Positions 12,753 to 19,800 of a stretch of 64,000 nucleotides of DNA are shown one piece after another; position 1 is the first letter of the stretch, and each line of letters begins with the position of its first letter. The DNA is taken from positions 1-64,000 of the IMG/VR virus record IMGVR_UViG_3300032605_000009. The stretch is one strand, 5' to 3'. Made by a program: the position numbers and the translations under genes. Origin of the DNA: a virus. The notes below the pieces were generated by a model, which did not search any database, was not told the DNA's origin, and worked only from the letters and a program-made list of their open reading frames with translations.

Positions 12753-14324
12753 ATGAGCGAATTTATAGATGAAGAAGAGTTTCTCGAGGACGATGAGATT
12801 CCCGTTGAGGAAGAGCTCGAGGAAGAGCTAGACGAACTCTCTAAGGAGTTTGTCAATAAGCTAATTGATCGAGTTATGCAATTCATGGCGGCATTCGTAG
12901 GCCATGACCTTCACCCTTACCAAGTCCCTCTGGCTAGACGTATTATTGAGTCAGTTATTATTAACGACGGCGAAGAGATAACAGCCCTAGCGGCCCGTCA
13001 GTCTGGTAAGTCAGAGACCATCGCTAATACCGTTGTTACCCTTATGGTTCTTATGCCTCGCCTAGGCAAGATGTATCCAGACCTTCTCGGCAAGTATAAA
13101 GATGGTATCTGGATCGGTATGTTTGCCCCCGTTGAGGGTCAGGTTGAAACCCTATTCGGCCGTGCCGTAAACCGCCTAACATCTGAGCATGCTAATGAGA
13201 TCCTTGCTGACACAGAGATTGACGACAGCATCAGTAAAGTGGCAGGTGTCACACGTCAGATCAAGCTTAAGAACTCTGGCTCTACTCTCACAATGATGAC
13301 CGCTAACCCACGAGCCAAGATTGAATCTAAGTCGTTCCATCTCATTGTTATTGACGAGTGCCAAGAAGCCGATGATTTCGTGGTATCTAAATCTATCTCT
13401 CCTATGTTGGCTTACTACTCAGGAACCATGGTTAAGACTGGTACGCCTACCACGTCTAAGAATAACTTCTACCGTTCTATCCAGCTTAATAAGAGACGCC
13501 AGACAGGCTCACGCGCTAGACAGAATCACTTCGAGTGGGACTGGCGAGATGTTGCTAAGTGCAACCCTAACTACGCTAAGTTCATTAAGCGTGAGATGCT
13601 TCGTATCGGCGAAGACTCTGACGAGTTCCAGATGTCGTACTGCGGCAAGTGGCTCCTAGAACGAGGCATGTTCGTTACCTCTACAGTTATGGACGAGCTT
13701 GGCGACACCTCTCAAGAGGTAGTTAAAGCCTGGCACCGTTCTCCTGTTGTAGTGGGCATTGACCCAGCCCGTAAGATGGACTCCACAGTAGTCACAGTTG
13801 TTTGGGTTGACTGGGATCGCCCTGATGAGTTCGGCCTCTACGACCACCGTATTCTTAACTGGCTTGAGATCCAAGGCGATGACTGGGAAGACCAGTACTT
13901 CCAGATCGTTAACTTCCTTTCTAACTACGACGTCCTAGCAGTAGGTGTAGATGCGAACGGTGTAGGCGATGCCGTAGCCCAGCGTCTAAAGATCCTACTT
14001 CCTAGAGCTGAGGTACATCCAGTAGGCAGCTCCCAGCAGGAGCAATCCAAGCGTTGGAAGCACCTAAAGCAGCTTATAGATAGACGCTTAGTAGGTTGGC
14101 CTTCTCACGCAAAGACTCGTCGTCTACGTACCTGGAAGCGCTTTTACCAGCAGATGACAGACCTAGAGGTTAAGTTCAATGGCCCTAACTTCTCTGCCGC
14201 TGCCCCAGATGAGGCTCACGCCCATGACGACTTTGCTGACTCTTTGGCTATTGCCTGCTCTCTAACTATGGAATTAGCTATGCCTTCAGTAGAGGTAAGC
14301 TCGAATCTATTTTTTAGTAGATAA
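12753..14324 (+). CDS. terL: terminase large subunit
   Basis: Walker A ARQSGKS, Walker B IVIDE, GTP motif, nuclease GIDPA and HDDFADS. Confidence 0.95.
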   Translation: MSEFIDEEEFLEDDEIPVEEELEEELDELSKEFVNKLIDRVMQFMAAFVGHDLHPYQVPLARRIIESVIINDGEEITALAARQSGKSETIANTVVTLMVLMPRLGKMYPDLLGKYKDGIWIGMFAPVEGQVETLFGRAVNRLTSEHANEILADTEIDDSISKVAGVTRQIKLKNSGSTLTMMTANPRAKIESKSFHLIVIDECQEADDFVVSKSISPMLAYYSGTMVKTGTPTTSKNNFYRSIQLNKRRQTGSRARQNHFEWDWRDVAKCNPNYAKFIKREMLRIGEDSDEFQMSYCGKWLLERGMFVTSTVMDELGDTSQEVVKAWHRSPVVVGIDPARKMDSTVVTVVWVDWDRPDEFGLYDHRILNWLEIQGDDWEDQYFQIVNFLSNYDVLAVGVDANGVGDAVAQRLKILLPRAEVHPVGSSQQEQSKRWKHLKQLIDRRLVGWPSHAKTRRLRTWKRFYQQMTDLEVKFNGPNFSAAAPDEAHAHDDFADSLAIACSLTMELAMPSVEVSSNLFFSR

Positions 14325-14403: not shown

Positions 14404-14802
14404 ATGACAATCGCACCAGATCCAAAGTTCCCAGAGAACTCTCCAATCGTTTACGATCGTAAAGTTTCTCCAGCTCTTCCAGGTCAACGCGGCCCACTTC
14501 GCTTCGAAGAAGGCCTAGCTACAGACACCGATATCCCTAACGAATTCTCAAAGGGTGCTGCCCAGGGTTACACAGCTGCTCCAGGTCGCCCAAACCGCAA
14601 CGTCAACGTATTTGAGAAGTTCCCAGAAGAGACAATGCGTGAGCGTGCTCACGTTGGCTCAGCTGCATGGGTTGAAGCTCCTAACACACTTCAGGAGTTC
14701 TCAAACGGTGCTTTCGCTGATCATGGCGATAACCGCATCGAAGAGGTTATGCGTAACGGTTCACATCAGCAACGCCTTAACCCTGCTGTAGTTAACGACT
14801 AA
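14404..14802 (+). CDS. conserved hypothetical head-region protein
   Basis: SD AAGGAG; highly biased codons. Confidence 0.75.
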   Translation: MTIAPDPKFPENSPIVYDRKVSPALPGQRGPLRFEEGLATDTDIPNEFSKGAAQGYTAAPGRPNRNVNVFEKFPEETMRERAHVGSAAWVEAPNTLQEFSNGAFADHGDNRIEEVMRNGSHQQRLNPAVVND

Positions 14803-14874: not shown

Positions 14875-15183
14875 ATGGCTCTGATTCAAGGACAAGAAGC
14901 TAAGGAAGCACCTAAGCAATACCCTGCTAATCCTAAGCTCTGGAACATGCTTACAACTCAAGCACGCTCCAAGTTCCGCGCCTACCCATCTCCAGCTGCA
15001 GCGCACTGGGTTCACAGTCGTTATCAGCAACTTGGCGGCAAGTTCGTCGATTCCAAGAAGCAGGTCGATCCAAAGATGCGCGACTACGCTCAAGAGCGTA
15101 AAGATAAGATCGAAGAGAAGCAAAAGAAGAAAGTAACTAAGCCTGTGGGTAAGAACCTTATCTATGGCGAGCGATATAGATAA
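14875..15183 (+). CDS. basic hypothetical protein
   Basis: SD AAGGA; YPSPAAAHWV..GGKF. Confidence 0.7.
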   Translation: MALIQGQEAKEAPKQYPANPKLWNMLTTQARSKFRAYPSPAAAHWVHSRYQQLGGKFVDSKKQVDPKMRDYAQERKDKIEEKQKKKVTKPVGKNLIYGERYR

Positions 15184-15241
15184 TAACTAGCTTAGTGTGT
15201 TACCATATGTCGACAAATAGATTTATTGAGAGGAAGTGTAA

Positions 15242-15433
15242 GTGCCAGCACTAAGTAGCAAGCGCACAGCTCCTCTCCTAGTGGACGCTGGCCTTGTGTT
15301 TGGCCGACTCACAGCCACCGCAGCTCTTTACCCATTTACTGAAGACATGAAAAGCATGGTTGCTACCGCCGTACGAGCACCACGTACAGCCCAGGCTCTG
15401 CCTGTTACGGACGGAAAGGAGGTGAGCGCATAA
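15242..15433 (+). pseudogene. probable internally deleted homing-endonuclease remnant
   Basis: Own promoter and SD; GLVFGRLT resembles the GxxFGRLTV N-terminal motif of phage HNH/AP2 endonucleases; no catalytic motif remains. Confidence 0.4.
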
Positions 15434-17149
15434 TGTCAATTGATTTTTCACCACCATCCTACCGCGCAGCATCGTCGGATTTAACAATATCAATCAGCCC
15501 CCTAGGCCTAGTAGAACTCGCAGACGAAGAGTTCGAGGTGCACGGGCCACGCTTGAATAGATACTCGTTAAATTGGGCGATGTATTAGTTACCTAGGTCA
15601 TCACTGGTCGTACCGCCGTCAAACAGGCGAAGCCCAAATGGCACTCAACTATTTTCGTGCCTTCTCAGATTTCATCATTAACTTCACCTTTGGCAAGGGC
15701 GTTAACTTCCGCTCACCTAAGGAAACAGAAGCTATTGTCCCAGACCTTCTAGAGCGTGTATGGGAAGTAGATAACAACAAAGCTACAGTTCTTTGGGAAA
15801 TCGGCCAACAAGGCGGAGTATCTGGAGACTGCTTTATCAAGGTAGCTTACGAAGAAGCATTCGTGGATACCGCAGGCCGCGCTCACCCAGGCCGTGTACG
15901 TATCCTGCCACTTAACGCATCATTCTCTTTCCCAGAGTTCCACCCACATGATCGCGAGCGCCTCATCCGTTTCAAGTTGAAGTACCGCTTCTGGGGCACA
16001 TCACTTGAAGGCACACGTCAAGTATTCACTTACACTGAAATCTTGACAGACGACACGATTGAGGAATACATCAATGACGAGCTCATTGACTCGCGCCCAA
16101 ACCCACTGGGCACTATACCCGTTATACATATTCCTAACATTCGTATTTCTGGTTCTCCTTGGGGTCTCTCAGACTGTGATCAGATTATCAGCATTAACCG
16201 TACGTATAACGAAACGGCGACAGACATTGCGGACATCGTTAACTACCACGCAGCGCCAGTTACAGTTATTATCGGCGCTAAGGCGGCGCAGCTAGAAAAA
16301 GGCGCCAACAAGGTATGGGGTGGCTTGCCTAAGGATGCTCGTGTAGAAAACCTTGAAGGCGGCGGCTCTGGCCTAAAGCTTGGTCTTGAGTTCCTTGAGC
16401 TAATGAAGAAGGCCATGCACGAAATGGTCGGCGTACCTGAGACTGCTCTTGGTCAGGCTATGCCAGTATCTAACACATCAGGTGTTGCTCTTAGCATTAT
16501 GTTCCAGCCTCTTATGGCTCGTTACCACCAAAAGATTATTCAATACGCTCACGGCCTAGAGCGCGTCAATGAGCTTATCCTTCTTAACCTTGCTGTTAAG
16601 GAGCCTGAGGTATTTACCTGGGATCCTAACTCAAGCACAACGCCTCTAAAGCCTGGTCAGCTTTCACAGCTAGATCCTAATGACCCTATTACTTTCCGCT
16701 CTTATGTTCACTTCCCACCTCCGCTACCACTAGACAAGCTCATCGTTCTGAACGAGATTCAGACCAAGATGTCCCTTGGCTTGGAGTCAAAGGAAGGCGC
16801 TTTGCGCCTATTGGGCGAAGAGTTCCCTGCTGAGAAGCTCACCGAGATCCGTCAAGAACTCATGGATGACGCTAAGGCTGATGGTGCTCTTAAGCTCCTA
16901 CAGACCGAAATCAACAATGAAATTGCTTCCCTTACAGGAATGCTCCCTGCAGAAGGTGGTATGGCTGAGCCTCTACCTACTGGTCCAGAAGGAGAACCTG
17001 CAGTCCCTCAAGGCGGACCAACTCCGATCCTTGATGAGGCAACCATGCTGAACACAGCAGGTGAGGCGGCTCTACGTAACCGCCTAGTTACAGAAGCTTA
17101 CGGCACCCAGATCCCACAGAGAAGGACGCCGCAAGACTACGAGAAGTAA
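15433..17149 (+). CDS. portal protein (SPP1 gp6-like), interrupted by a 7-nt coding gap at 15586..15592
   Basis: Near-perfect SD AAGGAGGTGA before ATG 15433; 51 codons then TAG; the +1 frame resumes YLGHHW.. into the 15638..17149 portal ORF (IPVIHIPN, SGVALSI); located between terminase and scaffold. Confidence 0.85.
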
Positions 17150-19236: not shown

Positions 19237-19800
19237 ATGGCAGTAAAAGAAGGATGTCCGCAAGGACATAAATATACAGAAGAAAACTCTTACATAGATA
19301 AGAACGGTTATACCCACTGCAGAACTTGTCGCTTAGAGCGAATGAGAGAGCGCAGAAAGGATAACTTAAGGGTTGGACGTGGCGTTAATAACGCCTCTAA
19401 GACTGAGTGCCCTAAAGGTCACCCCTATGATGAAGAGAACACAATTACATATGTAAAGCCTAACGGTAGAACTAGAAGATGTTGCCGTGAGTGTGCCAGA
19501 GTAAACATGATTACCCAGAACGTTAAACGTTATGGAATAACCAAACCAGACTTCGAAGCACTAGTAGCATCACAAGATTCTAGATGTGCCATATGCAAAG
19601 GAAAGTTCTGGGATGAGGTCTCCTCTCCCCATATAGACCACGACCACACCTGCTGTAATGAGCAAATGAGGTCATGTGGCAAATGTATAAGAGGACTCCT
19701 ATGCAGAGGCTGTAACCAAGTTCTTGGCTGTGCCAAGGACGACATCGAGACCTTAAAGGCCGCGATAAAGTACTTACGGTCAGGAACTCTGACTTTTTAA
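19237..19800 (+). CDS. free-standing endonuclease VII-family homing endonuclease
   Basis: Two CPxGHxYxEEN..CRxC modules; CAIC..HIDHDH..IRGLLCRGCN; foreign AGA/ATA-rich codons. Confidence 0.88.
   Translation: MAVKEGCPQGHKYTEENSYIDKNGYTHCRTCRLERMRERRKDNLRVGRGVNNASKTECPKGHPYDEENTITYVKPNGRTRRCCRECARVNMITQNVKRYGITKPDFEALVASQDSRCAICKGKFWDEVSSPHIDHDHTCCNEQMRSCGKCIRGLLCRGCNQVLGCAKDDIETLKAAIKYLRSGTLTF

Follow-up and report, generated by a model that had tools for sequence, protein, structure and literature searches.

The DNA analyzed here, referred to as the window, is a stretch of 64,000 nucleotides (nt) of a virus (IMG/VR record IMGVR_UViG_3300032605_000009, positions 1 to 64,000), the first part of a single 77.5-kb contig that is a complete genome. 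Its portal gene is broken after codon 51 by a 7-nt coding gap that opens with a stop codon, and directly upstream lies a 63-amino-acid (aa) open reading frame (ORF63), the remnant of an HNH homing endonuclease. We think it probable that these parts are explained together by a mobile homing cassette whose nuclease has decayed, whose gap protects its carriers, and across which ribosomes hop from one tyrosine codon to another. A free-standing HNH gene would have inserted at the portal start codon, bringing with it its own ribosome-binding site (RBS), a recoded copy of portal codons 1 to 51, and the 7-nt insert after Tyr51. The endonuclease would later have lost about 145 internal residues in frame to become ORF63, while the recoded segment and the gap persisted. 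As one element, this cassette would extend from about 15242 to 15592, with a donor-type tract continuing to about 15677. Related phage contigs and loci compared with the window are given L-numbers (e.g., L004 and L047).

A 7-nt gap interrupts the portal reading frame

The first frame of the portal gene runs for 51 codons from the ATG at 15433 and closes with ATG TAT TAG (15580 to 15588). A second frame is open from 15572, and portal homology restarts in it, one position forward, at TAC 15590 to 15592. When compared by tblastn with uninterrupted portals, TAT 15583 and TAC 15590 both aligned to one Tyr, and at the nucleotide level gapless relatives read ATG TAY CTN GGN CAY CAY where the window reads ATG TAT (TAG T TAC) CTA GGT CAT CAC. 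Both comparisons bear out the 7-nt offset reported in the preliminary description of this DNA. The uninterrupted sequence ...NWAMY LGHHW... is encoded in one frame in Streptomyces phage portals and in the portals of 80 IMG/VR contigs (78 to 90% identity). The window portal is 55% identical to annotated Streptomyces phage portals, which lie in the gene order terminase, portal, scaffold, capsid, and both its match to the profile PF05133 and its position between terminase and scaffold/capsid genes identify it as an SPP1-type portal.

The exact window allele was found in at least 16 lake-water metagenome runs, and a 1,685-nt contig from run X13, which is not flagged as a possible source, spans 15000 to 15706 with zero differences from the window, so the gap is not an error of sequencing or assembly. 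Every sampled 31-mer of 15150 to 15800 occurred in 11 or more lake or freshwater metagenome runs, 16 runs contained at least 95% of them, and no insertion or deletion at the gap was reported in the metagenome runs. Among the sequencing runs, none listed as holding the phage was of RNA. An AlphaFold model of the portal (30 close homologues) had a mean predicted local distance difference test score of 33.6 and was unusable for placing residue 51 in the fold, and a profile search of Protein Data Bank sequences with the portal returned no match.

Gaps accompany the endonuclease in related phages

A pattern spanning the window-type gap was searched for in IMG/VR and metagenome contigs, and an HNH profile search then added further loci. 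Matches were 12 IMG/VR and 7 metagenome contigs, and in all of them an intact HNH ORF of 204 to 215 aa immediately precedes the portal. In every locus that has an HNH gene and a complete portal 5' end, one or more short coding gaps are present. At the window's site, no gap occurs in any of 73 HNH-less relatives; at the first of the three sites listed in Table 1, L011 is the only one of them with a gap. The HNH gene is thus sporadic at a fixed position, immediately 5' of the portal: about 30 contigs have it and 73 lack it. The co-occurrence of gap and upstream endonuclease anticipated in the preliminary description holds.

Over all loci we cataloged 13 insert types of 4, 7, 8, and 9 nt at three sites. 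A stop codon opens all 13, and the last codon of nine is a synonym of the take-off codon (Tyr, Glu, or Gly). The relatives' variants TAGGTAC, TAGTTAT, and TAGTTTAC retain both the stop and the Tyr landing codon. The 9-nt inserts (L102 and the L095 group) are in frame but contain a stop, and the insert of L104 is 8 nt long. The gap site also follows the type of nuclease: carriers of a gap at site 1 only have an HNH protein with a zinc-ribbon-like N-terminal half, and carriers at site 2 or 3 have an FGRLTAT-type N-terminal half. The nuclease of the L095 group, which has gaps at sites 1 and 2, is of the FGRLTAT type, and that of L114, likewise gapped at both sites, is FGRLTAT-like (HGLLTAT, 54% identical).

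Two gaps in a single portal gene were observed in these last two cases. L114 (3111 to 3330) carries TAAGTAG after Glu36 and TGAC after Tyr51, and the L095 group (L095, 6700 to 6900; L092, L112, L122, and L130) carries the 9-nt TAGCCCGAA after Glu36 and TAGGTAC after Tyr51. In these phages, ribosomes would need two recoding events within 16 codons.

The recoded 5' end diverges sharply from otherwise close relatives

Codons 1 to 51 of the window were compared with those of L004, its closest gapless relative. The two are 100% identical in amino acids but only 72% identical in nucleotides, with a synonymous divergence (pS) of 0.98. After the gap, pS is 0.97 over codons 1 to 28 and 0.35 over codons 29 to 88. 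The drop comes only after codon 28, which places the end of the donor-type tract at about 15677, some 85 nt past the gap. Nucleotide identity of the same 51 codons to those of L090, L093, and L047, all carriers, is 86 to 91% (pS of 0.34 to 0.38 against L090 and L093); the downstream portals of these carriers are not close, nor are they each other's nearest relatives. The break is sharper between L047, which has the cassette, and L072, which does not. These loci are near-identical to the left of the start codon, fall to 74% nucleotide identity (pS of 0.90) in the first 51 codons, and return to 93 to 99% identity after the gap, with pS of 0.33, 0.13, 0.11, and 0.08 in successive segments. Taken together, pS against the nearest cassette-free relative is 0.90 to 0.98 in the 51 codons and 0.08 to 0.35 downstream, as is expected of co-conversion. 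The preliminary description had contrasted the two sides of the gap; the break in divergence is sharp and lies at the gap or shortly after it, with the donor-type sequence of the window running further.

A 76-row tree built from the portal sequence after the gap requires at least five changes of gap state, and strongly supported branches compel at least three of them. Gapless L004 is the sister of the window (support 96), and L085 and L088 group with gapless L072 (support 100). Two further pairs of loci are near-isogenic. Up to the start codon, L120 and L111 share 99.5% identity, and from just past codon 52 (site 2) they match completely once more, yet L120 has an HNH gene whose N-terminal half is of another kind and a gap of 4 nt at codon 36, whereas L111 has the window-type HNH gene and a 7-nt gap at codon 51. 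L011 (3843 to 4030) and L012 (1700 to 1886) differ only by 36 recoded codons and a 7-nt gap at codon 36 (GAA TAGT GAA) in L011; identity resumes right after the gap, and L011 is a gap-only allele without the HNH gene. We also observed that GGAGGTGATGCC is repeated, occurring once at the ancestral portal RBS and again where the HNH gene ends (3' side). The nuclease could have been precisely removed or omitted through recombination of the two copies or through a short conversion tract.

Gapless portal relatives co-occur with the window phage in the same lake runs (X13, X17, and X18). One such contig aligns only from 15590 onward, and its preceding letters are ...TGG GCT ATG. In run X13, a single contig with a 30-nt side joins 15239 to 15677, a weakly supported joint that matches the proposed cassette borders and may serve as a hint of them.

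Could gap and endonuclease be linked by common descent alone, or the locus be a decaying pseudogene in a defective phage, with no homing and no function of the gap? The carriers are related phages from similar habitats, and the window's endonuclease is dead, both of which fit such an account. It sits poorly, however, with a gap state scattered over the portal tree, with near-identical partners that lack the cassette or hold an alternative one, with purifying selection on both sides of the gap (see below), with 13 different inserts that all open with a stop, and with an allele that persists across many lake samples in a complete 77.5-kb genome. We regard this explanation as largely refuted and give it the least credence of those considered. 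The proposal of the preliminary description, that remnant, recoded portal 5' end, and gap constitute one mobile cassette, gains support from the co-occurrence, the divergence break, and the identity of ORF63. The locus has the anatomy of such an element, it combines strict co-occurrence with a scattered distribution beside near-identical cassette-free partners, and selection has acted on both sides of the gap; on this comparative evidence, the cassette reading is well supported.

ORF63 is an internally deleted HNH endonuclease

ORF63 starts with GTG, contains GLVFGRLT as first noted in the preliminary description, and ends in a TAA that overlaps the portal ATG at 15433. It had been described as an endonuclease remnant, and alignment with intact HNH homologues agrees. 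About 26 N-terminal residues (through FGRLTAT) and 37 C-terminal residues are kept, and about 145 internal residues are deleted in frame, removing the Cys-rich, zinc-binding region and the catalytic HNH (beta-beta-alpha-metal) motif that is present in the intact relatives. ORF63 alone had no family match in Pfam or PHROG. An intact homologue, on the other hand, matched Pfam HNH (PF01844, 1.3e-9) and PHROG HNH families. By the alignment, ORF63 is not a conserved protein unrelated to endonucleases. Intact HNH genes of 204 to 226 aa occupy the equivalent spot in about 30 related lake-metagenome contigs, and the TAATG overlap with its RBS has the same layout at the 3' end of all intact HNH genes.

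A second short HNH form, P0005 (57 aa), lies on L047-like sequence and has other deletion end points; a pattern across its deletion junction had no match among viral contigs. Since the end points of ORF63 and P0005 differ, the enzyme has decayed in frame at least twice. Both remnants retain both ends of the protein, which fits a need for translation to run into the TAATG overlap with the portal start. A second HNH copy acting in trans was considered and rejected, as none was found in the genome.

The N-terminal module of the HNH protein (GDVFGRLTV ... CxCxCG ... GNTSSCGCLH) also occurs as stand-alone proteins of 83 to 86 aa (P0007 to P0009) on other metagenome contigs, which suggests an independent DNA-binding domain shuffled among nucleases.

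The insertion captured the ancestral portal start signals

Where relatives lack the HNH gene, 43 to 93 nt separate the portal from the 102-aa gene; this spacer contains a GTCGAC motif, a TAnnnT element, and a Shine-Dalgarno (SD) sequence, and ends at the portal GTG. The segment from 15184 to 15241 is near-identical to the spacer in L004 and L005, two such relatives without a gap, in which it reaches to the portal GTG. In the window and in L046/L047, the ancestral spacer instead runs to the GTG of the HNH gene, and a new SD sequence (AAGGAGGTGA) and the portal ATG sit at the 3' end of that gene. The ORF63 GTG thus occupies the position of the portal start codon in gapless relatives. The -10 element and SD sequence that had been assigned to ORF63 as its own are therefore portal signals captured, together with the GTG, by the insertion. 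A scan for sigma-70 consensus promoters upstream of ORF63 gave no match and did not pick up the proposed -10 (TACCAT), and a TAnnnT element is conserved at the place of TACCAT in relatives without an endonuclease gene. In most relatives (spacers L004 to L083), a palindrome-like (T)GTCGAC(A) or ATCGAC motif is also conserved about 10 to 15 nt before the TAnnnT element, and may be a late promoter or a regulator site.

Codon usage does change across the gap, as the preliminary description had pointed out. The codon adaptation index is 0.574 for the 51 codons (the 1.7th percentile of all 51-codon segments in the genome) and 0.82 after the gap. Gapless L004 and L005 share an equally low index (0.58) at the portal 5' end, so the contrast is not diagnostic of foreign origin and codon bias was rejected as a sign of it. 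The break is one of divergence and not of codon usage.

Ribosomes likely hop over the break

How the two parts of the portal are joined was considered from the selection on either side. Six distinct carriers gave a ratio of nonsynonymous to synonymous divergence (pN/pS) of 0.086 over codons 1 to 51; beyond the gap, the ratio is 0.21 for the initial 16 codons and 0.14 for the initial 60. In the resumed frame of L047, no start codon occurs until 76 codons downstream, and in that of L090 none until 138. Purifying selection together with such distant start codons indicates that both sides are translated and makes a separately initiated C-terminal piece unlikely. We therefore regard as very improbable the explanation that the portal is made without recoding as two polypeptides, a 51-aa N-terminal peptide and a C-terminal piece started independently at ATG 15638. 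That ATG lies 16 codons past the landing site, and genes split beside homing endonucleases can work, as T4 gp39 and gp60 show. However, it lacks a convincing SD sequence and is missing in L047 and L090, and the codons between the gap and the distant starts of these two carriers are under purifying selection (pN/pS of 0.14 to 0.21). Decoding by a suppressor or frameshift tRNA was also rejected, as no tRNA gene was found in the window's genome.

The comparisons favor a hop. A ribosome would stall with UAG in its A site, and the peptidyl-tRNA-Tyr would leave UAU and re-pair with UAC 7 nt downstream. The product, ...NWAMY-LGHHW..., would have no extra residue and would equal the uninterrupted protein. 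By our own reasoning, the move from UAU to UAC would exchange a wobble pair for a Watson-Crick pair if the host tRNA-Tyr has G34. Each virion contains 12 portal subunits, and with so few needed a low efficiency of hopping could suffice.

The same cassette might instead be read by a programmed +1 frameshift at UAU UAG U, a shifty stop resembling that of prfB, to give ...AMY-S-Y-LGHHW... with two extra residues (junction NWAMYSYLGHHW). A stop codon in the A site is a known stimulator of +1 frameshifting (PMC5009743). Inserts of 7 nt and 4 nt both amount to +1 in frame, TAT TGA C and TAT TAA C resemble the UGA C context of prfB and lack a Tyr landing codon, and this reading stays alive through the four insert types whose landing codon is only partly matched. 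Nevertheless, tRNA-Tyr would be unable to re-pair on AUU, and the A-site stop codon is the only feature shared with prfB, there being neither +1 re-pairing nor an SD-like element. The 8-nt insert (L104) and the in-frame 9-nt inserts (L102 and the L095 group) would not be solved by a +1 step, and matched take-off and landing codons recur at three sites. Moreover, the fourth base of the insert varies between G and T, so that translation would place a variable residue (Arg or Ser) inside a motif that is invariant in 30 portals. We consider a +1 frameshift unlikely, though less so than two separate polypeptides. Insert lengths of 4 to 9 nt, the stop at their start, the matched landing codons, and the invariant motif all lead us to prefer a hop, which would be the simplest single mechanism to cover all insert lengths. 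On these sequence comparisons, it is likely that ribosomes hop over the portal break.

The gap may protect carriers from the nuclease

In portal alleles without the cassette, an intact enzyme would cut the DNA at the gap site or close to it, and the cassette would be copied in during repair. The insert would interrupt the recognition or cleavage site and so protect carriers, including those without the enzyme. On its right, the recoded tract ends at the gap or just past it, the gap site tracks the nuclease variant, and the gap outlives the nuclease, having been retained after its partial (window) or complete (L011) loss. These observations point to the gap site as the place of nuclease action and to the insert as an interruption of the nuclease target, and they make self-protection conferred by the gap likely. 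Retained protection would still be useful, since gapless relatives share lake runs with the window phage.

Several points weigh against the explanation as a whole. The consensus RNA fold around the gap contains only a 4+4-bp hairpin (GAUG..UUAG-KUAC-CUAG..CAUC), its pairing is broken in one carrier, and its energy in the window does not differ significantly from that of shuffled sequences (z = -0.4). Near the gap we found no clear stimulatory signal and no convincing SD-like element. In four of the 13 insert types (TAAC, TGAC, TAGTGTA, and TAAGTAG), the landing codon would pair at only two of three positions. L004 is only about 84% identical to the window downstream, which leaves the borders of the window cassette less sharp than those of L047 and L072. 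The gap-bearing contigs come from few lake studies and are phylogenetically related, and their counts overstate independence. Finally, both hopping and carrier immunity are what we infer from sequence.

Layout of the locus

The features of the element and its gap sites are listed in Table 1. The local gene order is a terminase (12753 to 14324), small conserved genes (14404 to 14802 and 14875 to 15183), ORF63, the portal, a scaffold-like gene, the capsid gene, and an Endonuclease VII-domain gene.

Table 1. Features of the portal locus in the window and gap sites across all loci
Feature	Position	Strand	Description or basis
Ancestral portal upstream region	15184..15241	+	GTCGAC motif, TAnnnT -10-like element, and SD-like GAGAGGAAG; now 5' of ORF63
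ORF63, in-frame internally deleted HNH homing endonuclease remnant	15242..15433	+	Alignment with six intact homologues of 204-215 aa
Cassette-borne RBS and TAATG stop/start overlap of ORF63 and portal	15416..15435	+	RBS AAGGAGGTGA at 15416-15425; read from the sequence
Portal codons 1-51	15433..15585	+	Cassette-borne, synonymously recoded copy of the portal 5' end
Recoding site	15583..15592	+	Take-off Tyr TAT 15583-85, stop TAG 15586-88, T 15589, landing Tyr TAC 15590-92
7-nt coding gap	15586-15592	+	TAG T TAC
Portal remainder, SPP1-type	15593..17149	+	Frame 2; Pfam SPP1_portal PF05133, 5e-17
Gap site 1	After Glu36		Inserts TAGTGAA, TAGTGAG, TGAA, TAGTGTA, TAAGTAG, TAGCCCGAA
Gap site 2	After Tyr51		Inserts TAGGTAC, TAGTTAC (window), TAGTTAT, TAGTTTAC, TAAC, TGAC
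Gap site 3	After Gly53		Insert TGAATAGGT

The Endonuclease VII-domain gene (187 aa, 19237 to 19800; PF02945, 3e-20) sits in the spacer that separates the capsid gene from its downstream neighbor and widens this spacer from 80 to 115 nt to about 650 nt. This insertion is present in only 3 of about 56 relatives (L011, L057, and L084), and the genes that flank it are intact and have no coding gap. It is probably a second free-standing endonuclease of the homing type.

Comparison with known systems

The closest system is gene 60 of T4 and its MobA element, whose parts correspond one to one with those described here. In T4, the gene 60 bypass of 50 nt is part of the MobA element, which encodes an HNH homing endonuclease (Bonocora et al. 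2011, as cited in bioRxiv 10.1101/2022.08.31.505936). In that element, the bypass insert, not polymorphisms, blocks nicking (Manning & Atkins, bioRxiv 10.1101/2022.08.31.505936). In both systems, an HNH homing endonuclease lies directly upstream, followed by a diverged copy of the flanking coding sequence (67 to 81% nucleotide identity in T4 and 72 to 74% here), so that portal codons 1 to 51 are the counterpart of 'homR'. The gap opens with a stop right after the take-off codon, the landing codon is matched (in nine of the 13 types here), and the element ends at or just after the landing codon. Repeated independent insertions are found beside near-identical insert-free genomes, and the endonuclease decays while the gap stays. 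The systems differ in their target, which in T4 is a topoisomerase gene that is split with added tails, whereas the portal gene receives its insertion at the start codon and is unsplit and without tails. The gap is 50 nt in T4 but 4 to 9 nt here, and here there is no evident take-off stem-loop, gap SD sequence, or dedicated nascent-peptide signal. The portal system also has several gap sites and two nuclease variants per gene, sometimes with two gaps, and belongs to lake phages whose closest named kin are Streptomyces phages.

The proposed decoding resembles that of synthetic stop-hops, E. coli constructs in which a stop codon stands between two matched codons (Weiss et al. 1987, as described in Atkins et al. 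2016, PMC5009743). There, as we propose here, the peptidyl-tRNA leaves the codon before the stop and re-pairs a short distance downstream on a matching codon. Those constructs are engineered and of low efficiency, whereas the portal gaps are natural, conserved, and in an essential gene; according to the 2016 review, no natural in-frame stop-hop was known (PMC5009743). A third comparison is with the terminase gene of Streptomyces phage phiHau3, which has 10-nt inserts after UUA, and with an S. catenulae prophage, which has a 7-nt insert (Antonov et al. 2023, PMC10732093). Bypass of the phiHau3 type was demonstrated by mass spectrometry in E. coli (PMC10732093). Like the portal inserts, these are short, break the frame, and lie in an actinophage gene that is essential for packaging or the head, and bypass was argued from a conserved junction and an intolerable insert. 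The trigger there, however, is a rare UUA codon, proposed to be a regulatory sensor and described with no link to a homing endonuclease, whereas here it would be a stop codon and the insert would be part of an endonuclease cassette. Our literature search found no published endonuclease-linked gap in a portal gene.

Stop-led gaps of 4 to 9 nt might be a general, modular self-immunity device of free-standing homing endonucleases, in which every nuclease variant places a gap of its own where it cuts, a single essential gene is able to carry two, and ordinary ribosomes hop over them without elaborate signals. We entertain this generalization tentatively, with slightly more doubt than belief. If it is true, natural stop-hops would be common and not a T4 curiosity. 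The locus also matters for annotation, in which portals of this kind are called as two genes or as pseudogenes. Within a single essential gene, the system provides 13 different inserts at three sites; it also has two variants of the nuclease, and near-isogenic phages that have or lack the cassette. It makes testable which signals are minimal for a ribosome to hop, and whether frame-breaking inserts serve as protection from homing endonucleases when the sequence of the target protein is fixed. The T4 bypass cassette has been said to remain 'unique' (bioRxiv 10.1101/2022.08.31.505936); this locus and its roughly 30 relatives would be an independent and much simpler natural bypass system. The portal element would work like the T4 MobA cassette but stands outside that element family.

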